33,789 bases of DNA from a virus (lineage: Duplodnaviria; Caudoviricetes), in the IMG/VR virus record IMGVR_UViG_3300034341_000032, positions 1-33,789 of that record. One strand, written 5' to 3'. This document shows, piece after piece, positions 10,960 to 22,467 of the stretch (position 1 is its first letter; every line of letters begins with the position of its first letter). A model generated the notes under the pieces. It saw only the letters and a list, made by a program, of their open reading frames with translations. It did not search any database and had not been told where the DNA came from. The position numbers and the translations under genes were made by a program.

Positions 10960-11324
10960 TGATACAAGCATTGATTGGGCCGATTGCATCATTAGCTGGC
11001 AGCTGGATGGAATCAAAAGTTGAGCAGACTAAAGCTAAAGGTAGGGTTGCTTTGGCAAAGGCTGATGCTGAAGCTGAGTTGATGAAGCATGAAGCTGGTT
11101 GGGAAAAAATTATGGCTAAGTCCAGCGACAATAGCTGGAAAGACGAAGCATGGACTATTTTGTTTATAGCTATAATTGCTATGTGCTTCATTCCCTTTAC
11201 TCAGCCCTATGTTGAGCGTGGCTTTACAGCTTTAGATGCTACACCTGATTGGTTTCAGTACGCAGTTTATGCTTCAATAGCCGCAAGCTTTGGATTGCGC
11301 AGCTTAAAGGGTATAAAGAAATGA
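10959..11324 (+). CDS. Putative holin (3TM, GTA-holin-like)
   Basis: SWKDEAWTILF...PDWFQY...IAASFGLR with basic C-terminus; immediately upstream of the endolysin. Confidence 0.65.
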   Translation: MIQALIGPIASLAGSWMESKVEQTKAKGRVALAKADAEAELMKHEAGWEKIMAKSSDNSWKDEAWTILFIAIIAMCFIPFTQPYVERGFTALDATPDWFQYAVYASIAASFGLRSLKGIKK

Positions 11325-11770
11325 AACTATCAGAGCATTTTAGTCTTGAGGAAATGACCAAAAGCCAGACAGCTTTGCGGCGTAACCTTCCTAATACGCC
11401 CTCAGAAGCTCAGACAGAGGCGTTAGTTCTTTTGTGTGAGAATGTACTAGAGCCAGTGCGAAGCCACTTCAGCATACCTTTTACGCCCAGCAGTGGCTAT
11501 CGCAGTGCCGAGCTTTGTGTTGCGATAGGTAGTTCTGTGTCTAGTCAGCATGCAAAAGGTGAAGCTGCTGACTTTGAGGTGCCATCTATATCTAATCTTG
11601 AGTTGTGTACTTGGATTATTAACAACCTAGATTTCGATCAGATTATTCTTGAGTGTTATACTGGTGGTAATACAGGATGGGTACACTGTAGCTACAAGGC
11701 AGAAGGTAATCGTAAAGAAGTTCTCACATACGATAAAGAGAATGGTTATCGTAAAGGCTTGCTAACTTAA
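11321..11770 (+). CDS. Endolysin, peptidase M15A family
   Basis: MKLSEHFSLEEM..SGYRS..SQHAKGEAAD..WVHCS gives HxxxxxxD plus H zinc ligands. Start set at ATG 11321 (ATGA overlap). Confidence 0.9.
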   Translation: MKLSEHFSLEEMTKSQTALRRNLPNTPSEAQTEALVLLCENVLEPVRSHFSIPFTPSSGYRSAELCVAIGSSVSSQHAKGEAADFEVPSISNLELCTWIINNLDFDQIILECYTGGNTGWVHCSYKAEGNRKEVLTYDKENGYRKGLLT

Positions 11771-11807
11771 AATGGGCCAGCCGTAATTTGGGAAACGACT
11801 GACCCAC
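11769..11807 (-). terminator. Hairpin/terminator ending the early operon
   Basis: 13-bp stem 11772-11784/11795-11807 has three C.A mismatches on + that are G.U pairs on -; followed by a short U run on -. Confidence 0.65.
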
Positions 11808-11835
11808 TAGCAGGTGGAGAACTAATCAACCTGCT
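11769..11835 (-). ncRNA. Candidate 3'-UTR sRNA with anti-RBS loop
   Basis: AGCAGGU[UGAUUAGUUCUCC]ACCUGCU; the loop is the exact complement of GGAGAACUAA found at early-gene RBSs. Confidence 0.5.
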
Positions 11836-12303
11836 TTAAAATGGTACATCTTCATTTGGCTCTGCGCTAGTTTTTTCTGTTTCTAATTTCATTAAGTCAC
11901 TAGCTGATATAGATTTTAAACCACTGGTTTCGTCTTTGATGTTGTCGCCAAACTCAGGTATCTCATCGTCTATTGGTTTAGGCTTGTATTCTGATACCTG
12001 CAAAGACATGTAAGCATTGTCATCTTTCATCTCTTTCCAAGATGCAATCTTCCAGTCTTGATGCAGCCCATCAAGTGGGCCACTGTAGTCGGGTGCTTTC
12101 TCATTGCCCCTCTTGTCGTTAGGAAATAAGCATCCTATCTTTTGGAATACTTCGATGCGCTTCTTGCCATCTCTGGACTCAGCCATGATGAGTGCTACTT
12201 GTCCGTCTTCTCCCATAACATTAAGCTTGCCTTGTAGTATAAGCTGTTGCTCGGGAAAAGGTTTGAAGGCTGCGCCTCTGTTGGTGTTGTCATATTCAGT
12301 CAT
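11836..12303 (-). CDS. Putative single-stranded DNA-binding protein (DUF736-like)
   Basis: KAPDYSG motif, acidic tail ending EDVPF, downstream of exonuclease and ERF; AAGGAGAAC RBS. Confidence 0.6.
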   Translation of the reverse strand: MTEYDNTNRGAAFKPFPEQQLILQGKLNVMGEDGQVALIMAESRDGKKRIEVFQKIGCLFPNDKRGNEKAPDYSGPLDGLHQDWKIASWKEMKDDNAYMSLQVSEYKPKPIDDEIPEFGDNIKDETSGLKSISASDLMKLETEKTSAEPNEDVPF

Positions 12304-12424
12304 TGCTGTTCTCCTTTTTTGTACGCTCTTGTAAGAGCCATAATATTTTTTCTACCTTATGCTCAAGGTTAGTGAGTCTGATTTTTATTTCTTCTAAATG
12401 TAAAACAAACTTTGAAGAAAACAT
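12296..12424 (-). CDS. Small hypothetical protein (42 aa; not in ORF track)
   Basis: MFSSKFVLHLEEIKIRLTNLEHKVEKILWLLQERTKKENSND; TAATG-coupled to the upstream gene and fills the gap exactly. Confidence 0.6.
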   Translation of the reverse strand: MFSSKFVLHLEEIKIRLTNLEHKVEKILWLLQERTKKENSND

Positions 12425-12633
12425 TAGTCAGCCCTCCATATCCTATGATGGTTAAGGTTCTCTCTTCTTGTAGCAATTTTTATATCCCATGCTTTTGCAG
12501 CCTGTCTTATAGCTGCAACAAAGCCAGTACCAATAACGATGCTGTCTCCTTTCTTCATACGTTTTAAGATACTGTACTTTGATCCATATCCATTTGGCAT
12601 GGGTACGCCTTTTTCAATTTGATATTGTTCCAT
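12424..12633 (-). CDS. Small basic putative DNA-binding protein
   Basis: MEQYQIEKGVPMP..KY..MKKGDSI..RIWR, a common small phage family; TAATG coupling with erf. Confidence 0.65.
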   Translation of the reverse strand: MEQYQIEKGVPMPNGYGSKYSILKRMKKGDSIVIGTGFVAAIRQAAKAWDIKIATRRENLNHHRIWRAD

Positions 12634-13088
12634 TACCACTTCTCCTCTGGTGGCAACCTACCATCGTCATCAAGCTTAACGCTCTTGACCTTTGTTACCT
12701 TAGGGTTGGGCATGCTAGCTGAGTTACCGTCATCATCTTCTGATGGTAGTCCGAATGCAGACTGTAAGCCATAGCGTTTAGCATATGTGATACCGCTGCC
12801 CATCTTCTGTGGATCAGTAGGGTCTTTGACTAGGACAGGTGTGCGTCCAGTTATATACTCGCCCGACTCATGCATAACAATTGTAGTTACAAAGATGTGA
12901 TGCTCATTAAAGTCAACAGGCTGTGTAAATGTAAGGCCACACTTGCCAGCCTCCACTCTGACAGTCTCAATAACTTCTTCAAGACTAGCATAGTTTGATT
13001 TGAAGAATGGATTTTTTGCAGTCTTCTTAGCTGCTGCTCCAGTGTTGTGAAACTGGATAAGTGCTTTGGTTATGTTCTTTAGTTCCAT
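12633..13088 (-). CDS. erf: ERF-family ssDNA annealing recombinase
   Basis: KNPFFKSNYASLE...PQKMGSGITYAKRYGL..GLPSEDDDG signature. Confidence 0.92.
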   Translation of the reverse strand: MELKNITKALIQFHNTGAAAKKTAKNPFFKSNYASLEEVIETVRVEAGKCGLTFTQPVDFNEHHIFVTTIVMHESGEYITGRTPVLVKDPTDPQKMGSGITYAKRYGLQSAFGLPSEDDDGNSASMPNPKVTKVKSVKLDDDGRLPPEEKW

Positions 13089-13089
13089 T

Positions 13090-13911
13090 TTAGTTCTCCT
13101 TGACTGTGATGCGTAATGATCCGCGCTTGTCGCGTTTGATGGCTAGAAGATCACAGTATACTTCTCGCTCATCGTCACCAACCATAGCTTTGAGGTCAGA
13201 CTTGGCTGACTCAAATAGCTTTGCTGATTTCTCTTGTTCAATGTAGTCATGGCATCGGCTGATAAATTCGTTGTCGGCTGATGCATCTCGTTTGACTAGG
13301 CCATCGACCTTGATCTTATCTATAGATACAGGTGGCACTTCGTTGTCACCGAAAGGGCGGGTGTCCTCAGTGACATGCCTCCAGAACTCGGTGATGTGTA
13401 CCTTCATCTTGTTGATGTAGTCCCAATCTTTCTGTACATATACAGCAGCCCACTTGCGGTTGCCAAAGATTACAGATAGATAGCAGCCCTTGGCTTGATG
13501 TAGCCACATGTAGAACTGCATCTGTGGCATGTACATACTCAAACAATTTTCCATATTGTTTGTTTCGTATGTATGCTTGCACTCAATGATCTCGTCAGTA
13601 AATTTTCTGTCCATCATAATGTGACCATCGACTTGACCCTTGAGAGGCACACCTTCCCAGTTCATCTCTGCTGTAAGACCATTACCTTCGCCTTTGTGCA
13701 TGACATGCTGTACTGTTTCAGTGTCAGTGAACATCTGTTTATCAAACCAACGCTTGTTAAAGTGTTCAGTCTCTGAGCCTAGTTGTACTGCTAAATTATC
13801 TGAAAGATCATCAGGCTGTTTCTTGCCTGTCTTCTCTTCCCACAAGGCAACCCAATCGCCTCGCATAATGCGGTTCATATCTGAGCCGCCTAAAAATCCT
13901 AGTCTGTTCAT
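13090..13911 (-). CDS. YqaJ-like (lambda exonuclease family) recombination nuclease
   Basis: RLGFLGGSD..LWEEKTG..G..E..VDG..IIECK..Y.PQMQFYM motifs; adjacent to erf. Confidence 0.9.
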   Translation of the reverse strand: MNRLGFLGGSDMNRIMRGDWVALWEEKTGKKQPDDLSDNLAVQLGSETEHFNKRWFDKQMFTDTETVQHVMHKGEGNGLTAEMNWEGVPLKGQVDGHIMMDRKFTDEIIECKHTYETNNMENCLSMYMPQMQFYMWLHQAKGCYLSVIFGNRKWAAVYVQKDWDYINKMKVHITEFWRHVTEDTRPFGDNEVPPVSIDKIKVDGLVKRDASADNEFISRCHDYIEQEKSAKLFESAKSDLKAMVGDDEREVYCDLLAIKRDKRGSLRITVKEN

Positions 13912-13931
13912 AGTAGTTCTCCTTTTGATTT

Positions 13932-13960
13932 ATTATACTGCAACTATGCAGTTAGATCAA
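13932..13960 (-). promoter_or_regulatory. Sigma70 promoter with operator dyad in spacer
   Basis: TTGATC-17bp-TATAAT on -; ACTGCA-N4-TGCAGT dyad at 13937-13952. Confidence 0.8.
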
Positions 13961-14570
13961 GCTTCTTTTGTTGTAGTGATGAGAGCATTAACTCTCTACG
14001 TCTGAGTCTCCACTTGATATGCTTGTGAAACTCTGAGTATGCAGGCCAGAAAGTGGTAGTCTCGGATACCTGCTTGATTGCATACTTAACTATGTCTGCT
14101 GGATACACTGACAGTTCATTAGCTATAGCTTGTATTCGCATTGCATGATCGTCTGATGACTCACCTGCTGGCTTCACCACCAGCGCAGCCAGCAGCGTGA
14201 GGTCATCGACTAACATTTCTTTAGGCATGGGAACCATAGCTTGCATAACTGTAGCTATACATTTGTTTACATCATCGACCGATGTTGATTCTATTCTGTA
14301 GCCACTGACAATAATATCTACGCCATCATCCTTGAAGCTACTGCGACTAATCTCTACTACCTTGCAGCCTGTTGTGCATTCTAGCGAAGTGAGAAGCAGA
14401 CTGTCGACTCTGGCTGGATTGTTTACCTGTAGCATTCGATCCAGACCTGCCTGTATTTGATCGCCACTCAATATGATTTGAACACCAGTATCTGTAGGCT
14501 CTGTCGAAGGACGCAAATTTTTTGCCTGTTGCTTGATGGTAGTTAACGAACTTATCTGCTTGAGCGACAT
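13944..14570 (-). CDS. Replication accessory protein (lambda P / G39P-like position and motif); start uncertain
   Basis: Follows the initiator; LSVYPADIVKYAIKQV..FWPAYSEF resembles the FxPxxxE motif of phage helicase loader or inhibitor proteins. Confidence 0.5.
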   Translation of the reverse strand: MSLKQISSLTTIKQQAKNLRPSTEPTDTGVQIILSGDQIQAGLDRMLQVNNPARVDSLLLTSLECTTGCKVVEISRSSFKDDGVDIIVSGYRIESTSVDDVNKCIATVMQAMVPMPKEMLVDDLTLLAALVVKPAGESSDDHAMRIQAIANELSVYPADIVKYAIKQVSETTTFWPAYSEFHKHIKWRLRRRELMLSSLQQKKLDLTA

Positions 14571-15009
14571 GATCTATAGCCTCCTTGTGTTTAGCATCTA
14601 TGGATTTGCAAAGGTCATCGCTTGGAACCCATCCATCCGGAACCTGACCCTTTGTATTCTTTGTTTCCTTATTGGTTATTGATAGGTTAGTGTTGCTGTC
14701 TGCAACAGAGGTGTTGCTGTCTGCAATAGGGGTGTTGCAGTGTGCAATATCTTTTGGGAATATTATGTAGCGTGTTGACTTGCCTGTGTGTCCACGATCT
14801 CTAGTTAGATAGCCGTGATCTTCCAGCCAGTGCAGCTTGCGCGTTACTGTAGCTACAGACATAGCAGTACGTTGTGATAGTCGGCTGAGACTAGGCCAGC
14901 ATAGGTGCTTGTCTTCATCTGCATGATCTGCAAGCACAACCATTAGCCATTTTGCATAGCAGTCAGGTATCTCTGACTTGATTGCCCTCGCCATTAGTAG
15001 GAATGCCAT
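14347..15009 (-). CDS. Lambda O-like replication initiator (N-terminal wHTH, HTH_36-like)
   Basis: AKWLMVVLADHAD...CWPSLSRLS..MSVATVTRKLHWLE..GYL; central iterons; F.NYH..G....FDRAYRYW C-terminal motif; AAGGAGAACTA RBS. Confidence 0.85.
   Translation of the reverse strand: MAFLLMARAIKSEIPDCYAKWLMVVLADHADEDKHLCWPSLSRLSQRTAMSVATVTRKLHWLEDHGYLTRDRGHTGKSTRYIIFPKDIAHCNTPIADSNTSVADSNTNLSITNKETKNTKGQVPDGWVPSDDLCKSIDAKHKEAIDHVAQADKFVNYHQATGKKFASFDRAYRYWCSNHIEWRSNTGRSGSNATGKQSSQSRQSASHFARMHNRLQGSRD
14690..14752. repeat. Three 21-bp iterons; putative replication origin
   Basis: GTGTTGCTGTCTGCAACAGAG / GTGTTGCTGTCTGCAATAGGG / GTGTTGCAGTGTGCAATATCT, each with a TTGC-N5-GCAA dyad, next to a T-rich tract at 14651-14685. 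Confidence 0.8.
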
Positions 15010-15334
15010 CGTAGTTCTCCTTCAATAATGGTGCTATCTTTTCTTCAAAGACATCACCATCAAAGATGATTAGTGTTTTGGGTTTACCTTCCCTGCGCTT
15101 GTAGAACAGCACATCTCTAACTACAGTAAAGGGATTGGGAAAGTTTGATTTGTCTCGGTACTTTACTTCAACCACCAAGGCGTTTTGTCCGACTTGCCAG
15201 ATGATGTCTCCGCTATACTCGCCTCCCAACGCTCCGCTGAGAGGTTGCCTCTTCGCTTTGAACCCGAGCTTTTGTAACCACTTGACGAATGTTCGCTCAT
15301 GGTAGTCTCCTTTTGCGCGACTCTTGCTTGCCAT
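14963..15334 (-). CDS. Hjc-like PD-(D/E)XK Holliday junction resolvase
   Basis: SRAKG..HER....L...G..A.R.PLSGA....GDI....VEVK signature. Confidence 0.85.
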   Translation of the reverse strand: MASKSRAKGDYHERTFVKWLQKLGFKAKRQPLSGALGGEYSGDIIWQVGQNALVVEVKYRDKSNFPNPFTVVRDVLFYKRREGKPKTLIIFDGDVFEEKIAPLLKENYDGIPTNGEGNQVRDT

Positions 15335-15507
15335 GTGTCTGCCTCATAACAATCAATACAGATTGTGTGATAGGTTGGTGGTTTTTCTGTAGCTAATATG
15401 CATACAAACCAAGGGGTCTTATCATTGCAAGCATCGCATGGGTATGCTTCACCTACTTTATCGTAGAGTCTTTTTTTTATGGACTTTGATCGTAAGGCCA
15501 AGTGCAT
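15163..15507 (-). CDS. Small zinc-finger protein (CxxC...CxxC)
   Basis: CDAC...CIDC; fills the gap between HTH and resolvase genes, and its 3' half overlaps the resolvase. Confidence 0.55.
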   Translation of the reverse strand: MHLALRSKSIKKRLYDKVGEAYPCDACNDKTPWFVCILATEKPPTYHTICIDCYEADTWQARVAQKETTMSEHSSSGYKSSGSKRRGNLSAERWEASIAETSSGKSDKTPWWLK

Positions 15508-15721
15508 CTAACCAACATGCAAACAAGAATCCAGATGGTACTCGTTTGTGTTGCTCCCATTTGTGTATTAAAGATTCAGCGCATCCAATTTTGTAAGCTA
15601 AATTTTTCTGAGTCAACTTTTGTTTTGTTCGATGAACAACAAGTTGACCGATAACATACTGATATGTATCAGTAACTTCAGTCTCTACTTTGTAGTGCTG
15701 AAAGTTTTTCAATAGCTTCAC
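15458..15721 (-). CDS. XRE-family HTH protein
   Basis: R.KQKLTQKNLAYKIGCAESLIHKWEQHKRVPS.....W.DALG is an HTH_3 pattern. Confidence 0.85.
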   Translation of the reverse strand: MKLLKNFQHYKVETEVTDTYQYVIGQLVVHRTKQKLTQKNLAYKIGCAESLIHKWEQHKRVPSGFLFACWLDALGLTIKVHKKKTLR

Positions 15722-15872
15722 TAACTTTATTGGCTGTATCGTAGCGTAAATCTTTGCCTAATCTTGCACGATAAAAGGTAGAGTCAGGCACTCCGGCACA
15801 AGCAAAAGCATCCTTGAGTTTGATATGTAAGTGCGCTGACTTGTCTACTAATTGTTCCATGTATGTAATCAT
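15678..15872 (-). CDS. Small Cro-like HTH regulator
   Basis: 64 aa; LKDAFACAGVPDSTFYRARLG..L..DTANKV HTH-like; directly behind an operator-containing promoter. Confidence 0.65.
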   Translation of the reverse strand: MITYMEQLVDKSAHLHIKLKDAFACAGVPDSTFYRARLGKDLRYDTANKVSEAIEKLSALQSRD

Positions 15873-15878
15873 GCAGCC

Positions 15879-15908
15879 AATATGCTTGCAAGATTGCAGT
15901 TATGTCAA
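15879..15908 (-). promoter_or_regulatory. Sigma70 promoter with operator; probably leaderless transcript
   Basis: TTGACA-18bp-CATATT on -, TGCA-N4-TGCA at 15887-15898; ATG 6 nt after the -10, no SD. Confidence 0.7.
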
Positions 15909-15911
15909 TGG

Positions 15912-16160
15912 TCAAAATTCTGTAGACCCTTTCTCGTATTCACCAAGGCTTGACCAGCCACCAACTACATGTGTTTCTCTGGGATAGTAGTGACCAGTGT
16001 CTTCTTCAACAACATCATCAGCGAATGCATTGTCAGGAAGCATTGCGTTATTTAATTGCCAACCTTTTTTATTACGCTCAAGTTCTATGTTGTATCCATA
16101 GTTGATGCTTGATAGCGGCTTGTCTTCTTCGCGTTGGTATCTACCGTTTCTAGGCATCAT
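15912..16160 (-). CDS. Hypothetical acidic protein
   Basis: 82 aa in operon context, overlapping the upstream stop, with a purine-rich RBS. Confidence 0.6.
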   Translation of the reverse strand: MMPRNGRYQREEDKPLSSINYGYNIELERNKKGWQLNNAMLPDNAFADDVVEEDTGHYYPRETHVVGGWSSLGEYEKGSTEF

Positions 16161-16509
16161 CTTCTTCCTTGTAAAAATCTTTGCCCCACATTATAAGCTG
16201 GCCTCTACCAGACTTACCTTTTCTTTTGCGATGATCAACAACTATCAACCCTTTTTCTTTTAATGATTTAAACCTAGCTGTAACTGTGCTGTATCTAAGG
16301 TGATCCAACCTATCTAATACGTCATCCATAATGCAGCCACTGTCAGTGAATGTGCAAATAGCATAGTAAACTTTTTTCTCCATGCGAGTGACATCAAGTG
16401 AATCAGCAGCATCATGGCTAGTGCTTGGGTCACGGCTGCGGGCTAGCTTAAATGCTGGCGTGTCAAACAAATCGTCAGCTATTTTTTGTCCTTGTTCTAT
16501 AACATTCAT
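16150..16509 (-). CDS. Winged-HTH DNA-binding protein
   Basis: ARSRDPSTSHDAA..STVTARF..L..KGLI..RKGKSGR.Q..W pattern; AAGGAGAACTAAC RBS. Confidence 0.7.
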   Translation of the reverse strand: MNVIEQGQKIADDLFDTPAFKLARSRDPSTSHDAADSLDVTRMEKKVYYAICTFTDSGCIMDDVLDRLDHLRYSTVTARFKSLKEKGLIVVDHRKRKGKSGRGQLIMWGKDFYKEEDDA

Positions 16510-16510
16510 G

Positions 16511-16861
16511 TTAGTTCTCCTTGTTAGAACATGTTGGATTATGAATCTTCATATCCCACCACATATTTTTTAATTTGCCTGTGTCTATGACAGGCGTTTT
16601 TGATTGGCATTCAGACTCGATAATAATTTTACCACTTGCTGTTTCAAAATCAGTCATCATATTCAATGCTGTTTCGATAGCATCGCCTTCATCTTCAGCG
16701 TACACAACTTTGTAAACTGTGTACTGCGTCATCCATTTGAGATCATCACCTTTGCAATGAGTGCAAGTATCTTGTTCAGAATACATATAATTGTTGCATT
16801 CTCTGCATTTAAGAAACTCTTCGACTGTGCGTCTGCCAGTTATATTAGTACGGAATATCAT
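16511..16861 (-). CDS. Hypothetical protein with CxxC-x10-CxxC
   Basis: CREC...CTHC; contiguous in the operon. Confidence 0.55.
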   Translation of the reverse strand: MIFRTNITGRRTVEEFLKCRECNNYMYSEQDTCTHCKGDDLKWMTQYTVYKVVYAEDEGDAIETALNMMTDFETASGKIIIESECQSKTPVIDTGKLKNMWWDMKIHNPTCSNKEN

Positions 16862-17051
16862 CGTTCAAATCCTGTGGTGGGTGGGCTGCTTCCCATGCTG
16901 CTGTCGCACGTTCAATAAACTTTTGCTTTTTGAAGCGTGGATTTGTAGCTGCAAGATCATCAGCCATAGTTAAGATTGCAGTAGGCCAAGGTAGCAGTGG
17001 TGCTACCTTGTCTGCGAGATACTCAAAGTGTCTTTGTTGCATCAGTGGCAT
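16845..17051 (-). CDS. Hypothetical small protein (NPRF motif)
   Basis: AAGGAG RBS, TAATG coupling; RHFEYLA...LAATNPRFKKQKF. Confidence 0.7.
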   Translation of the reverse strand: MPLMQQRHFEYLADKVAPLLPWPTAILTMADDLAATNPRFKKQKFIERATAAWEAAHPPQDLNDDIPY

Positions 17052-17263
17052 TACTTTATCTCCTTCAAAGGTGGACGATATGATTGATCTTCGTTTGCAT
17101 CACGATCAAGAACCTCAGTATATGTGTCATACACTTTGTCGATAGCCCACTTGCATTGGCTAATGGTGGTGGCAAACTCAGACTGTTCGTCATGGCAACG
17201 ATCGTGAAGCAAATCAATAATTTGTTTAGCTTCAGTGATCTGATTGATGAATGATATCTTCAT
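17051..17263 (-). CDS. Hypothetical protein (70 aa)
   Basis: Start reassigned to ATG 17263 behind AAGGAGAACTAAC. Confidence 0.7.
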   Translation of the reverse strand: MKISFINQITEAKQIIDLLHDRCHDEQSEFATTISQCKWAIDKVYDTYTEVLDRDANEDQSYRPPLKEIK

Positions 17264-17337
17264 GTTAGTTCTCCTTGTTAATGAATCAGTGAGCGACACC
17301 GCCCCTCGTATCGGGCGGGGGCGGTGACGCGAAACGA

Positions 17338-18222
17338 TTATGATGTTAGTGGTGAAGCAACATGCCAGCTATTTAGTTTGAATACTTTGGCTAACTGATT
17401 CTGACGCAGACGTTGCGTGTTAGCTGGTGAATTAGATTCGTCTGTATGACTAGCCCAGTAGGTGCATGCATTGTACAATGCCCACTTGTTACCACCTAGC
17501 TTGGCTTTATCTGCATACCAGTAGCCCATCAGTCGCTCAAGCTGACGCTCATTCCATTTGAATGTGCTTGTCTTGTTGGGTGTGCGGCAAATGGCATGCT
17601 TGAAGAATCGTTCAGCCATATCATTATCTACGCTGGTTGACATCCAAGATTTGTATACATCTTTTGTATTTAGAAATGCCTCAAGCCCTGCTTGTATCTT
17701 GGCTGCACTGCCTTCTACATTGACATTGGTTGTGTGCTTTGCCCATGTATTAGCTACAGTGTCAGCATGTGTGCATCCATTGAGACACCATAAGCGCAAG
17801 CCGAATGCTGATTGCTGGAATGCCCAGCTACTATCGTATGAGTTAAAGAACTGCACGCGGAACCTTACATAGTCACCGACTGCTGGCTCCATTACTAGGT
17901 CAGCGAAGTCGATAGTGCCGCGCAGCTTGGCACCGTTATCAAAGATTTCAATTTTTGTATTGTAATCTTTAGATACATTCGACTGGCTAACAGCATCCAT
18001 GACTGAGTTAACTACATCGTCATGCTTGATTGCTTTGTACTTAGAGCCATGAACACCAAGCACTTCATTAGTATCTGTGCGTACAATGCAGCGAGCCATT
18101 GACTCAGGTACATTGTGATAGGTTGGGTCATTGTCTTTGATTGCTGCCAAGTTCCAAGTCTCTACTGGAAAAGACCAGCAATCTTCTACTAGGCTGTTGC
18201 CTATAACAGTTACTCCATCCAT
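17338..18222 (-). CDS. DUF932 (LGT_TIGR03299-like) protein
   Basis: VRTDTNEVLGV....Y...NSYDSS...RLWCLNG...KHT...GNKWALYNA.T...H motifs. Confidence 0.85.
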   Translation of the reverse strand: MDGVTVIGNSLVEDCWSFPVETWNLAAIKDNDPTYHNVPESMARCIVRTDTNEVLGVHGSKYKAIKHDDVVNSVMDAVSQSNVSKDYNTKIEIFDNGAKLRGTIDFADLVMEPAVGDYVRFRVQFFNSYDSSWAFQQSAFGLRLWCLNGCTHADTVANTWAKHTTNVNVEGSAAKIQAGLEAFLNTKDVYKSWMSTSVDNDMAERFFKHAICRTPNKTSTFKWNERQLERLMGYWYADKAKLGGNKWALYNACTYWASHTDESNSPANTQRLRQNQLAKVFKLNSWHVASPLTS

Positions 18223-18234
18223 TGTTAGTTCTCC

Positions 18235-18393
18235 TTATGAATGATGGCGCAGTATTACGCCGCTGATTATCACAACTAATGAGAACATCAGTAATGTGAT
18301 ATGAATGTAGAATCCTGCGTCAGTCACAGGATTCAATGCTGAACATATGATTGTCATCATAAATCCAATTCCGATTAAACTATTTGCGATCAT
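18235..18393 (-). CDS. Small two-TM membrane protein (52 aa)
   Basis: Start ATG 18393 behind AAGGAGAACTAAC; two hydrophobic segments. Confidence 0.7.
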   Translation of the reverse strand: MIANSLIGIGFMMTIICSALNPVTDAGFYIHITLLMFSLVVIISGVILRHHS

Positions 18394-18408
18394 GTTAGTT
18401 CTCCTTGT

Positions 18409-18450
18409 TGCATACTTGCAGTATAAACTATGTATTGCAGAGTGCAATAC
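18409..18450 (-). promoter_or_regulatory. Sigma70 promoter with operator dyads
   Basis: TTGCAC-16bp-TATACT on -; TGCA-N4-TGCA at 18409-18420; perfect dyad GTATTGCA-GAG-TGCAATAC at 18432-18450. Confidence 0.65.
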
Positions 18451-18624
18451 CTAATATTCAATATGTATGCCGTGGCGTGTGATGCTGCAATCATCATTGC
18501 ATTCATTATCAATTTGCTTTTGCTCATAGCAGCTATAGCAATACATATCATCTGCTTCTGGGCAATACACTGATGCGTTGCGTTGATCGCAAGTCGCGCA
18601 TTTACTCCGTCTAGTATAAAGCAT
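18451..18624 (-). CDS. Cys-rich B-box-like zinc-finger protein (57 aa; not in ORF track)
   Basis: GAAGGAG RBS; MLYTRRSKCATCDQRNASVYCPEADDMYCYSCYEQKQIDNECNDDCSITRHGIHIEY. Confidence 0.7.
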   Translation of the reverse strand: MLYTRRSKCATCDQRNASVYCPEADDMYCYSCYEQKQIDNECNDDCSITRHGIHIEY

Positions 18625-18781
18625 TTACATCTCCTTCACGGTTCCATTTCAGATACTGAAAGTTGGAATCGAATTTTCAAACACGAATTGTTTAAAGTCT
18701 GCCGCGCAAGTACTCAGCCGTGGCGTGTTCCCCCTGCGGGGTGCGGGGGGAGCGACTAGCGACACCCGCTGGATGGAACAT

Positions 18782-18813
18782 AAAAAAAGCTCCGCAGCCG
18801 AAGCTGCGAAGCT
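18782..18813 (-). terminator. Rho-independent terminator
   Basis: On -: AGCUUCGCAGC-UUCG-GCUGCGGAGCU followed by a U run; cUUCGg tetraloop; just after the stop at 18828. Confidence 0.92.
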
Positions 18814-18827
18814 GATGTGTCAGTTAC

Positions 18828-19244
18828 CTATGCTGACTTCTTCTTGAGTTGCTTGTACTGTGCGTCCAGTGCATCCATTGCACTCGCTGCTGCGGCTGAC
18901 TTCTGATGCTCATCAGGAAATAACTGCTGCGAACACTCGGTTAACAGTTGCTTTAGCAGTTCGTTGCATTCCAACTGTGTCTGCTGCCATTCGATGTCGC
19001 GGTTACGCTGTAGAATCTTGTCGTTATCAAGGACAACACCATGTTCTTTGTGTTCGATGTAGTCGTTAAGATTCTCATCTTGCAACTGCTCAATCTTCTT
19101 GTTCTTTGAGTTCGTGTTCCAGTCAACATCATTGATGAACTTGGTCACAAAATACTGAAGTGTTGATTGGTGTGTACGATCAGAAAGTGTGAAGACACGA
19201 TTGAGGTCTTGTGCGAAACCGTTTTTGTTTGATTGCTTAGTCAT
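18828..19244 (-). CDS. First early gene, helical/coiled-coil hypothetical protein (138 aa)
   Basis: Start ATG 19244 behind AAAGGAGAACTAA; has its own terminator. Confidence 0.8.
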   Translation of the reverse strand: MTKQSNKNGFAQDLNRVFTLSDRTHQSTLQYFVTKFINDVDWNTNSKNKKIEQLQDENLNDYIEHKEHGVVLDNDKILQRNRDIEWQQTQLECNELLKQLLTECSQQLFPDEHQKSAAAASAMDALDAQYKQLKKKSA

Positions 19245-19845
19245 CTTAGTTCTCCTTTGTGATACCGAGACCCTTCTCGGCTTATGCCCCATCCAGATCA
19301 TGGCTGTTATCAAAAGGCAAGTCAGGCTCGGGCGGCATTGGATGATCGCCTACAGCCCGCTTGCGCGATAGCGCATGATAAGCGCGGGCTGTTAGTCAGC
19401 TTATGAACAGATCGCCTCTATGCGATATGAGCATAAGCTGGCGTGGCGACCACCAATGGGCGAGACTTGCCTTTGGATGGCAGTTATGATGTGGATAATG
19501 GGGCTTGCCGAGAGGGGATCGGTATCTAGCAAACAAAGGAGAACGCGTAGATGACTTGCAATCAATTTACAAAAACGAGTGTAGCGCGAGGCATCAAGCG
19601 TGGCTTCACAATAGCTGATCCTTTCATTGGTGCTGTGTATTGGTGAAAATACCCATGTGTATTGAGCGTGTTTCATGCGCGATGTAACGTCCGTCAGTGA
19701 TGGGATCAACAGATCACATCTCTGTCGCAACGGCCATCTGGCGCATGAGTATGCCACGCTCATTGCCTTGTTGCTGCGATGTGTTGCAACGAGACAGTCG
19801 ATGCTACCCTTAGCAATCGACAAGCTAGTGGTTAGTGGCTAGGTG
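19145..19845 (+). other. Large strand-specific folded element (ncRNA or ssDNA structure)
   Basis: Imperfect inverted repeat 19145-19330/19461-19646 enclosing a two-hairpin Y, plus further hairpins to ~19845. Substitution mismatches in the aligned core are G.U or purine-purine on +. Confidence 0.8.
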
Positions 19846-19851
19846 TGTAAA

Positions 19852-19889
19852 TTGTGCGGTTGACAAGCCGAGAATAATTGACTGATAGT
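19852..19889 (+). promoter_or_regulatory. Putative late promoter for terS
   Basis: TTGTGCGG followed by consensus TTGACA at 19860-19865; variant of the TTGTGCGTTG motif; weak -10. Confidence 0.55.
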
Positions 19890-19913
19890 GGGGGGGGACA
19901 CACGGGGGGGCAG

Positions 19914-20285
19914 ATGACCGAGATTGTGAAGCTTACCGATAAACAGACTGCATTGGTGGATACACTTGTAGCAACAGGCTGTAGCATAACAGAAGCAGCA
20001 AAGCTTGCTGGGTACGCTGATGGCGAGTCCGGTAGAGTAAGTGCTAGCAAGGCTTTGCGGACAGGACATGTCCAGCAGTACATGATGCAACGGATAGGTG
20101 AGAGTATGGGTCTCAATGCTACGGTGGCTGCGGCTAAGATGCTGAACTTAGCAAGAGGAGCCAAGAGTGAGTACGTTCAGCTAGAAGCTAGTAAAGATAT
20201 CTTGGACAGGGCTGGCTTCAAGGCTCCGGACAAGCACATGCATTTGCATAAGGGTGATATTAGTGTCAGTATAGACTTGAGCTAG
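19914..20285 (+). CDS. terS: Terminase small subunit
   Basis: KLTDKQTALV..CSITEAAKLAGY HTH and SEYVQLEASKDILDRAG motif; first gene of the late arm. Start reassigned to ATG 19914. Confidence 0.8.
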   Translation: MTEIVKLTDKQTALVDTLVATGCSITEAAKLAGYADGESGRVSASKALRTGHVQQYMMQRIGESMGLNATVAAAKMLNLARGAKSEYVQLEASKDILDRAGFKAPDKHMHLHKGDISVSIDLS

Positions 20286-20426
20286 ATTCGCAATGCGAAT
20301 CGTTGCTCTGCGTGGGTGGGGTCCAAAAAAGAGGGCACGTGAATGGCAAGGTGTCCCTAACTCACATGATAGTTAAAAAAAGCTCGCAAGGTTTAGATTT
20401 ATTTTTTTTAGTCAGAGGTTCGTCTT

Positions 20427-20681
20427 ATGTGTGTAAGTAGTGGTGGTAGCGGGGCTAGTACAGATTATAAGGACACCAGTGAAGAGCCTATCGTTAGCAA
20501 GTACGAACTTACTGTTGAGCAGAAGAAAGAAAACAAGCGTCGCAAAAGCTTACTTGCTTCCAAGAAAAAGAAGTCTGGCGGTGATGGTGGTGATAACACA
20601 GACCTTGGTGCTGGCAGTAGCGGCAATTGGAATAGTGGACTTTCAACGCCTACTGCGAGTAGTGGAAACGTAATCACATGA
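20427..20681 (+). CDS. Small Gly/Lys-rich protein (MC-start)
   Basis: GAGG RBS; ATGA coupling to the next gene. Confidence 0.65.
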   Translation: MCVSSGGSGASTDYKDTSEEPIVSKYELTVEQKKENKRRKSLLASKKKKSGGDGGDNTDLGAGSSGNWNSGLSTPTASSGNVIT

Positions 20682-21019
20682 GCAAGACAGCAGCATGGCA
20701 GAGAAAAGAAGGTCAGAACCCAGCAGGTGGGTTGAACGCTGCCGGACGCGCATCTTACAAGGCACAAACAGGCGGCACACTCAAAGCCCCAGTGAAGGGC
20801 GGCGCAGACACGCCGCAGAAACTGAGGCGCAAAGGAAGTTTCTTGACACGCATGGGTTCCGCGAAGGGGCCACTAAAGGATGAGAAGGGCAGACCTACTC
20901 GTTTAAAGAAGGCATTGGTTGCGTGGGGTCACAGTGGTGACAAGGCTAGTGCTGTTTCAAAGGGTCGCTCACTTCTGAAGCGTTACCAGAACACAAAGAA
21001 AAGGAAAGCCAATGCCTAA
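20678..21019 (+). CDS. Highly basic phage protein (DUF6321-like)
   Basis: AWQRKEGQNPAGGLNAAGRASY..LKAPVK..RRKGSFLTRM..KGRPTRL..AL..W. Confidence 0.7.
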   Translation: MSKTAAWQRKEGQNPAGGLNAAGRASYKAQTGGTLKAPVKGGADTPQKLRRKGSFLTRMGSAKGPLKDEKGRPTRLKKALVAWGHSGDKASAVSKGRSLLKRYQNTKKRKANA

Positions 21020-21164
21020 TGTCGCTGGAAAAAGTTACGCCTACAATGCTGCTGGTAAGAAGAAAGCAAAGAAAGCCGCGCAGAGTTTACTCACTAAGCA
21101 ACAGAGAACGCTTCCGAAGGCTATCCAAGCCAGCATCGTTAAAAAGAAGATGGAGAAGGCATAA
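21012..21164 (+). CDS. Small Lys-rich protein (50 aa; not in ORF track)
   Basis: AAGGA RBS; MPNVAGKSYAYNAAGKKKAKKAAQSLLTKQQRTLPKAIQASIVKKKMEKA; TAATG coupling downstream. Confidence 0.75.
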   Translation: MPNVAGKSYAYNAAGKKKAKKAAQSLLTKQQRTLPKAIQASIVKKKMEKA

Positions 21165-21625
21165 TGGCTGACAAAGAATCACAGAAAAAAGGCGCGATCA
21201 AACCGTCTACTTTGTTAAAAACAGGCGGCACAAAAGATGGCGAAGGCAAAGACAATCCTACAGCCGGATTAGCTAAAAAATTATTTGCTGTAGAAACTCA
21301 GGCAGCAAAAGATTATGGAGTTTATAACAGCCCTGATTACGCTGGCTGGCGTAAAAGAAACAATCTTTCTAATACAAGTGGCGTTGGCGAAAAAGCAGAC
21401 AAGCTTCAAAAACAATTAGCGTCTAAAAATGTATCTATGTCCGATATAAATGCTGCAAACGCATTTATAAAAAAATGGCACACGCCCTTAGTTGGGTTAG
21501 ATAAGACTCGCGCAAAATCATTTAAAGAAGAGTCGGCAAAAGCAAAAAGAAAAATGCCATTCTCAAGCTCAATGGCTTTAGTTAATGTTGCTGCGAAAAA
21601 AGCAAGAGATGCTGCGAGGAAATAA
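21164..21625 (+). CDS. Lys/Ala-rich hypothetical protein
   Basis: 153 aa, TAATG-coupled at both ends. Confidence 0.7.
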   Translation: MADKESQKKGAIKPSTLLKTGGTKDGEGKDNPTAGLAKKLFAVETQAAKDYGVYNSPDYAGWRKRNNLSNTSGVGEKADKLQKQLASKNVSMSDINAANAFIKKWHTPLVGLDKTRAKSFKEESAKAKRKMPFSSSMALVNVAAKKARDAARK

Positions 21626-21867
21626 TGACTAAGTATCAAAAACATGACGGTTCAGTCTATGAAGGCCCAGTTCTTGTTATGCCTGATGGACGCATTAAGT
21701 CTGGGGCTACACTAACTGCTGACTCTGTTCGCTTGTTTCCAGTGCCAGAGCGTTCACGAGATGCAGATGGTGGCTTTCAATCTGATGACCCTTCTACGCC
21801 AGAAATCAATGAAGCTTGGGAAGGTGGCAAAGCACCAATCAAAAAGAAAAGCAGAAAGAAAAAGTAA
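21625..21867 (+). CDS. Hypothetical protein with DDPSTPxxNEAW motif
   Basis: 80 aa, coupled at both ends, GAGGA RBS. Confidence 0.7.
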   Translation: MTKYQKHDGSVYEGPVLVMPDGRIKSGATLTADSVRLFPVPERSRDADGGFQSDDPSTPEINEAWEGGKAPIKKKSRKKK

Positions 21868-22034
21868 TGGCAGTTAATGCAGCGGGTAATTATACCAAGC
21901 CAACTATGCGTAAGTCTTTATTCAATCGCATCAAGGCTGGGAGCAAAGGCGGTTCAAGCGGTCAATGGTCTGCGCGTAAGGCTCAAATGCTTGCCAAAGC
22001 TTACAAAGCCAAAGGCGGGGGTTACACTTCGTGA
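21867..22034 (+). CDS. Basic protein, N-terminal half of DUF5872-like family (55 aa)
   Basis: NYTKPTMRK..IKAGSKGG..GQWSARKAQMLAK.YK..GGGY; start reassigned to 21867 (TAATG). Confidence 0.75.
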   Translation: MAVNAAGNYTKPTMRKSLFNRIKAGSKGGSSGQWSARKAQMLAKAYKAKGGGYTS

Positions 22035-22276
22035 AGAAGCCACAAAAATCTTTGATGAATTGGACAAAGCAAAAGTGGCGTACCAAGTCAGGTAAGCCAT
22101 CTACTCAAGGCTCAAAGGCCACTGGTGAGCGTTACTTGCCTGCCGCTGCTATAAAAGCTATGTCTAGCTCTCAGTATGCAGCGTCTTCCAAGAAGAAACG
22201 TGAAGACAAGTCAAAGGGCAAACAGTTTTCCAAGCAGCCTAAAGCCGCTGCTGCAATAGCAAAGAAATACAGATGA
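22031..22276 (+). CDS. Basic protein, C-terminal half of DUF5872-like family
   Basis: QKSL..WTKQKWRTKSGK..TGERYLP..AI; GTGA overlap. Confidence 0.75.
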   Translation: MKKPQKSLMNWTKQKWRTKSGKPSTQGSKATGERYLPAAAIKAMSSSQYAASSKKKREDKSKGKQFSKQPKAAAAIAKKYR

Positions 22277-22467
22277 GTTTTCTGCACACACTCAAAGTAG
22301 AAGAGCGTGACCTACTTCGCAAAATAGTGAAGAAAGTACACCTTGTTCACCACCCAGAAGAATTTTGTAATGACCGCGAGGCTGATAAAGTTATAACCAC
22401 AATTGGCCCAGAGGTTGTTGAACGCATGATTAAGTTCGGTAAGGACAACAAGGTTGACCAACTTTAA
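22273..22467 (+). CDS. Hypothetical protein preceding terL
   Basis: 64 aa, ATGA coupling. Confidence 0.7.
   Translation: MSFLHTLKVEERDLLRKIVKKVHLVHHPEEFCNDREADKVITTIGPEVVERMIKFGKDNKVDQL

Follow-up and report, generated by a model that had tools for sequence, protein, structure and literature searches.

What is the function of a hairpin at the end of a phage early gene block when its loop is the exact antisense of a ribosome-binding site (RBS) shared by a set of early genes? The question is raised by the record of an uncultured marine phage, which has 33,789 bases, is estimated to be complete and was analyzed here over its whole length (the window). Its head and tail genes are of the podovirus type and lie on the + strand. 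The early block lies on the - strand and includes genes for a DUF932 protein, a replication initiator, a resolvase, a RecE/YqaJ-like exonuclease, an ERF annealing protein and an SSB. By terminase, the closest annotated phage is Pelagibacter phage Hodr (66%). A host search in binned genomes gave 9 hits, 6 titled Alphaproteobacteria or a family within and 2 titled archaea; a bin is not a proven host, and the host is perhaps an alphaproteobacterium. Positions 20427-22467, located between the genes for the small and the large terminase, contain a series of short, lysine-rich ORFs.

Two hairpins follow the SSB gene

The end of the early block contains the following features:

11836..12303, - strand: SSB-like gene (phrog_18154), directly upstream of the element; 7-nt match at its RBS; 0/43 lineages match their own seed
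11809..11835, - strand: hairpin 1, 7-bp stem and 13-nt loop, starting directly after the SSB stop
11816..11825, - strand: seed UUAGUUCUCC, the complement of the RBS tag, co-varying with the tag
11769..11808, - strand: hairpin 2 with a short U-run, 12-14 bp including 3 G.U
11321..11770, + strand: peptidase M15 endolysin gene, convergent; a context gene, not constant across the family

The initial annotation had placed this element next to the last early gene and had taken the - strand as the one that folds. Both statements held: hairpin 1 begins right after the SSB stop, and the - strand of 11755-11845 folds into two hairpins with -33.1 kcal/mol and a z score of -5.4, compared with an unremarkable z of -1.4 for the + strand. 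The G.U pairs of hairpin 2 agree with this orientation; hairpin 1 forms on the + strand too. The loops of the hairpins are UGAUUAGUUCUCC and UUCCCAAAUU, the latter belonging to hairpin 2. The U run reported after the second hairpin is indeed present, but it is weak in the window, with 4 U, two of which are paired in the stem. A simple terminator scan with a loop limit of 8 nt listed neither hairpin. Judged from its sequence, hairpin 2 is likely a terminator or a protective 3' stem. As a seed in its own right, its loop was rejected in the window, because its best duplex (-7.0 kcal/mol) was against no tagged site.

In 11 close relatives, the 7 pairs of hairpin 1 were 100% paired, 3 of them with double changes, and both stems together were 99.5% paired, with double changes at 4 pairs. 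All 5 stem changes that affected a single side leave a G.U pair if the early strand folds, and C.A if the late strand does. In more distant lineages, the stems of hairpin 1 differ. A search of window positions 11000-20500 with Rfam 15 at E<=1 returned only one hit, to a snoRNA model, far below threshold and outside the element; at the gathering score, 12 loci of relatives returned one tRNA only. A tRNA gene lies at L140:1752-1822 in a related phage.

The loop is antisense to a private RBS tag

The tag GGAGAACTA(A) was found at early-gene starts in six exact and two 9-nt copies:

19246..19255, - strand: tag at the first early gene (gene 1; 138 aa, start 19244); no family match; weak co-variation, 4/10 lineages match
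18395..18404, - strand: tag at a 52-aa gene (start 18393); sequence match
18225..18234, - strand: tag at the DUF932 gene (start 18222); 17/23 lineages match their own seed
17265..17274, - strand: tag at a 70-aa gene (start 17263); no more than 3/18 lineages match
16511..16520, - strand: tag at a 119-aa gene (start 16509; phrog_1123, function unknown); 12/18 lineages match
15012..15020, - strand: 9-nt tag at the replication initiator gene (start 15009); 13/19 lineages match
13914..13922, - strand: 9-nt tag at the RecE/YqaJ-like exonuclease gene (start 13911); 35/43 lineages match, 2 mismatch
13090..13099, - strand: tag at the ERF annealing-protein gene (start 13088), containing the RecE stop codon; as the gene after RecE, 24/43 lineages match

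On the - strand there are exactly 6 copies of GGAGAACTAA; the + strand has a single one, at 11816-11825. With at most one mismatch, 10 matches were found, compared with a shuffle mean of 1.75, and none of 100 shuffles reached 10. The core GGAGAAC occurs nine times on the - strand, each time just upstream of an early-gene ATG, and twice on the + strand, once in the element and once at 19538 within a separate long fold-back. Only a single inverted 9-mer copy of the tag exists, and this is the loop of the hairpin after the SSB stop. The claim that this loop is the exact antisense of the early RBS tag was thus confirmed, with six full copies, 9-nt copies at the RecE-like and initiator genes, and a 7-nt copy at SSB.

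The predicted loop duplex reached -14.3 kcal/mol, against -7.8 kcal/mol for a generic anti-Shine-Dalgarno (anti-SD) pairing, and the target sites were already open, with opening energies of 0.6-1.9 kcal/mol. When 53 curated starts were ranked by loop duplex plus opening energy, the top 11 were all early; the opening energies were computed from 70 nt upstream only and hence ignore the fold-back over gene 1. A Watson-Crick match of 9-10 nt to the seed was found at 8 of the 20 curated early-strand starts. The proposal that most early genes are targets was therefore overstated: the tag marks a subset of particular genes, to which SSB and the resolvase do not belong.

The fold-back just mentioned is a rod-like imperfect palindrome of about 325 nt (19236-19560) that separates the first early gene from the gene for the small terminase, with z scores of -12.8 on the - strand and -15.2 on the + strand. 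It pairs the RBS and start of gene 1 with 19535-19556. All 22 distinct leaders, the window included, folded at -120 to -169 kcal/mol (for the relatives, energies without a shuffle control), and in all 22 at least 3 of the 4 SD bases were paired to a co-varying partner. Several mismatches favor the + (template) strand. The structure may be a single-stranded-DNA promoter or origin of the Frpo/sso kind, or give an antisense RNA.

Other signals were noted in the early block. A terminator-like stem follows gene 1 on the - strand at 18788-18813, next to a GC-rich hairpin region (18725-18813 as a whole), and downstream of the DUF932 gene (17300-17335, - strand) lies another GC-rich hairpin, this one lacking a U-run. 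All three TGCA-N4-TGCA palindromes of the window (13939-13950, 15887-15898 and 18409-18420) lie just upstream of early genes, two of them inside sigma-70-like hits, and their number is at chance level (2.5 expected). Their placement suggests operators of an HTH protein. One promoter-like site may drive a unit of RecE, ERF, SSB and the element:

13932..13960, - strand: promoter-like site upstream of RecE; consensus match only, in a region whose 18 hits compare with 18.8 expected

Loop and tag change together among relatives

Relatives were collected in six protein-based scans, with the best 80 loci at most from each. The 275 loci of the first four scans were analyzed together with the window and Hodr, and grouping by SSB identity (75%) and seed sequence gave 68 groups, of which 63 had both RecE-like and SSB genes. 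A GTTCT(CC/CT/TC) seed was present at most 50 nt from the SSB stop in 37 of these 63 sampled lineages, and in 43 lineages of this marine phage group once the new ones were added. On the window's side of the tree, hairpins with differing stems present the seed in their loop; a second clade has it 5' of the hairpins. Its mean unpaired probability was 0.63 across unrelated stems, and in L155 it was almost fully paired. The asymmetry in folding was modest: the early strand had the better fold in 27 of 37 lineages, or in 24 when judged by z. After the terminator-like stem, at least 5 U were found in the next 8 nt in 27 of 40 lineages. The element had originally been assigned to the convergence of the lysis and SSB genes. 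However, a same-strand (early) ORF comes next downstream in 30 of 40 lineages; the lysis convergence is therefore incidental, and the element goes instead with the end of the SSB unit. It keeps this place at the unit end in L014, where an additional gene lies between it and SSB.

The seed core served to find the element; the base adjacent to it, used here as the predictor, did not. A lineage was testable if it had at least 3 GGAGAAC sites. In 30 of the 32 testable lineages (A 16, T 8 and C 6), the base that most often follows GGAGAAC was the one predicted from the base 5' of the seed, compared with a mean of 12.4 and a maximum of 23 in 100,000 shuffles; the misses were L110 and L192. By site, 152 of 186 matched, against 66 expected. 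The co-variation of loop and early RBS foreseen for related genomes was thus found. Too few sites were available in five lineages with the seed (L125, L176, L147, L153 and L154), which were left out; L147 has the seed and 0/7 tagged sites, and the one site of L176 mismatches its seed.

Because the lineages are related and partly split by seed, a tree check was run. Nine changes were needed for the loop base and nine for the RBS base. Independent pairs on well-supported branches numbered just 3-4 per base, none in the opposite direction (p 0.125-0.5). Two runs of 200,000 simulations in which the RBS base evolved independently on the tree gave at most 25 matches. Co-variation was seen at positions +8 and +9 but not at +10 (p 0.09). 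Six of the 12 new lineages from the last two scans had seeds, with 4 matches, 1 tie and 1 miss, a weak replication because A, the common state, was the prediction for five of these six. Sister lineages can differ in tag, such as the window (T) and L231 (C). In seven lineages, C-to-U changes of the seed core keep G.U pairing with GGAG. L361, without the standard seed, carries the tag GGAGAGA at 9 of 15 sites, matching a TCTCTCC loop. After the SSB stop of L145, L174 and L361, both loops are anti-SD-like, and early RBSs of the GGAGAGA and GGAGAAT types fit them.

The seed was absent from 26 of the 63 lineages and is therefore not essential family-wide. Hodr, the nearest cultured relative, has a C/U-rich loop near the SSB end, with a clear tag match absent. 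In a test of own versus foreign pairing, the mean rank was 0.26 with the seed and 0.53 without it; the latter value indicates that an alternative seed within the first 75 nt is lacking from most seedless lineages (L169 and L057 are exceptions). A candidate second seed, GCCTCA loops facing GAGGC-type RBSs, was rejected: such a site occurred in 2 of 6 lineages with the loop versus 19 of 51 without. In the clade whose seed lies 5' of the hairpins (L148, L153, L165, L172, L182, L202 and their kin), the terminator is repeatedly preceded by a short AACTG-like motif, which may be a site for processing or protein binding.

A fixed set of early genes carries the tag

The tag was present at 189 of 390 SD sites in lineages with the seed versus 13 of 183 in those without, and at 167 of 334 sites on the early strand versus 0 of 73 on the late strand. 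Among orthologues, a match to the lineage's own seed was common at RecE-like (35/43), the gene after RecE (24/43), DUF932 (17/23), the initiator (13/19) and the 119-aa gene (12/18). It was rare at gene 1 (4/10), a 208-aa gene (6/25), the 70-aa gene (3/18) and a 68-aa gene (3/34), nearly absent from the resolvase (1/39) and absent from SSB (0/43); the SSB RBS often lies inside the coding sequence of the upstream gene, and coding could also limit its tag. The tag at the ERF start overlaps the RecE stop, which reads KEN-stop in 8 of 9 T lineages and is read through in 6 of 8 C lineages. The read-through in most C-type lineages suggests that the tag base is held by pairing and not by coding.

A candidate small RNA and its alternatives

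The sequences compared establish the complementarity, the early-strand fold, the repeated joint change of loop and tag, and the gene-specific tagging, and on this basis the element is real, conserved and co-evolving. Since loop and tag change together between lineages, the element is likely a small RNA that would turn the tagged genes down together. That the loop and tag RNAs pair with each other is very probable; that a stable 3' RNA acts in trans and blocks 30S binding at the tagged early RBSs is, in our judgment, likely, with less certainty. The two hairpins after SSB would form the probable 3' end of the early transcript, whose 3' fragment would be released, or survive, as an RNA of about 65-90 nt. 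The exposed loop would then pair in trans with the tagged RBSs of a fixed set of early genes, and the pairing would block their translation. As early RNA accumulates, this could give negative feedback on the initiator, RecE-like, ERF and DUF932 genes, during which SSB and the Holliday junction resolvase would stay on. A search of public RNA data gave six runs of small share, all in the form of contigs, and contigs of relatives covered the element in X2/X3 (11528-11834) and X5 (11731-11853). These contigs run into the endolysin gene and carry neither strand nor ends, and therefore give no evidence on the element's transcript.

All co-variation results would fit equally well if the 3' UTR of the intact polycistronic mRNA folded in cis onto one tagged RBS at a time, without a free small RNA, and the element probably shares a transcript with RecE and ERF. 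We nevertheless consider pairing in cis unlikely: 6-9 tagged sites share a single seed, co-variation with the seed extends to sites about 6 kb away (DUF932, 17/23), and gene 1 comes with a terminator-like site of its own (18788-18813). Experiments excluded pairing in cis for OppZ, as described in PMC7398697. A different job for the same RNA, compatible with repression in trans, would be superinfection exclusion: accumulated RNA would silence the early genes of a second phage with the same tag, and the repeated T/C/A switches would have let phages escape into new immunity groups. The at least nine switches of an otherwise arbitrary base would be expected from this, as would sister lineages with different tags (window T versus L231 C), and the heteroimmunity of P1 and P7 through c4 is a precedent (accounts in PMC5320573 and PMC12197685). 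As the main job it is nonetheless quite improbable, because a one-base change still leaves the 7-bp core pairing, drift with compensation explains the switches too, and the 43 ORFs scanned include no integrase and so give no sign of a lysogen to protect.

Very unlikely, by comparison with repression in trans, is the possibility that the tag copy on the + strand serves in the late transcript as a decoy for a tag-binding protein, or that the tag and its inverted copy are DNA operators. Hairpin 1 does form on the + strand, and the T4 proteins RegB and RegA control early SD sequences (as treated in PMC3014915). However, the + strand copy breaks GGAG in 7 lineages while the RBSs keep it, the one-sided stem changes would give G.U in an early-strand RNA and C.A in a late-strand one, and protein specificity would need at least nine switches. 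The lysis-transcript decoy offered earlier as an alternative is thus weakened by the G.U seed variants and by the same-strand genes downstream (30/40). We see equally little likelihood that pairing directs cleavage or stabilization of tagged mRNAs instead of simply blocking ribosomes. Co-variation fits either sign of the effect, but the duplex spans the SD sequence and the spacer to the start codon, and target sites that are open already (0.6-1.9 kcal/mol) leave nothing to activate. Finally, the element might be no more than two ordinary terminators in a row without a regulatory role, with recombination or gene conversion keeping the copy of the tag in the loop similar; the phage encodes RecE and ERF, and 27 of 40 lineages have a terminator-like hairpin 2. 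This reading is extremely improbable: ten bases are a short tract for gene conversion, unrelated stems all the same leave the seed unpaired (mean unpaired probability, 0.63), and G.U variants and the exemption of particular genes are unexpected under homogenization.

Relation to known systems

OppZ and CarZ of Vibrio cholerae are autoregulatory small RNAs derived from 3' UTRs (PMC7398697). As in their case, an RNA from the 3' end of an operon would pair with initiation regions of its own transcript, and discoordinate control is possible, as described there. The element lies between the stop codon and the predicted terminator of its own operon and is complementary to initiation regions of that operon (RecE-like, 35/43; next gene, 24/43). 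In contrast, OppZ and CarZ are host encoded and dependent on Hfq and RNase E, with one described pairing site each according to the same account, whereas the phage element has one seed for 6-9 RBSs with a private tag. In the c4 RNA of P1 and P7, loops of a phage RNA also pair with its own RBS region, and loop and target change jointly; c4 differs in being a three-stem, RNase P-processed RNA with two loops that act on an antirepressor operon (both as described in PMC5320573 and PMC12197685). Instead of three stem-loops with a' and b' loops, the element has two hairpins and one co-varying seed, many target genes, no lysogeny module found and no Rfam match. The cuckoo RNAs (alpha-r14/RSs0680) and RNAIII of Staphylococcus aureus, as presented in PMC4615179, share with it adjacent hairpins, variable stems and C-rich anti-SD loops; hairpin-2 loops were C-rich in 18 of 40 lineages. 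Of the cuckoo definition given there, the element has the 2-4 adjacent hairpins with variable stems, but its loops are those given above and not the motif CCUCCUCCC in each. It also differs in that its seed is a phage-specific extension into the spacer between SD and AUG and co-varies with its own RBSs.

To our knowledge, known phage antisense RNAs act on one operon. Shut-off of early translation by phages is known through proteins, namely T4 RegB and RegA (in the account of PMC3014915). RegB resembles the element in early shut-off via GGAG Shine-Dalgarno sequences, and differs as a protein nuclease with a generic motif from an RNA seed with a co-evolving tag (same source). No paper on a phage RNA aimed at a shared RBS tag appeared in the literature searched, which included few subscription journals and in which the supplements of PMC10690425 could hold the motif unnamed. 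What appears new among anti-RBS small RNAs, on comparative grounds, is thus a private tag on multiple genes.

A similar architecture is that of the Cluster K mycobacteriophages, whose non-structural genes have a private extended RBS, the SAS, with one unexplained inverted copy in K1; in the account of Pope et al. (2011), its RNA or protein partner was left open (PMC3203893). In Anaya and Angelica, two of four phage stretches and both K1, the inverted SAS forms an unpaired hairpin loop on the strand of the SAS genes, at the apex of a long GC-rich hairpin (L286:11871 and L287:11635, respectively); the copy lies between genes in Anaya and falls within the annotated gp92 in Angelica. No inverted SAS was found in the right ends (about 8 kb) of TM4 and Pixie. 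The SAS and the marine tag differ in sequence and host: the window tag does not fit the 13-bp SAS consensus and is a different motif in a similar architecture.

The comparative data point to one small RNA that addresses chosen genes through a co-evolving RBS barcode. To the broader statement we give about even credence: phages write a private barcode into chosen early RBSs, one loop RNA reads it, the barcode is rewritten in each lineage and may double as an immunity code against related phages, and the same design would explain the Cluster K SAS. It offers a candidate answer to the 2011 question of what binds the SAS, testable in phages growing on Mycobacterium smegmatis, and the T, C and A types suggest natural orthogonal seed/RBS pairs for synthetic control. 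If true, it would represent a general, undescribed layer of phage translational control.
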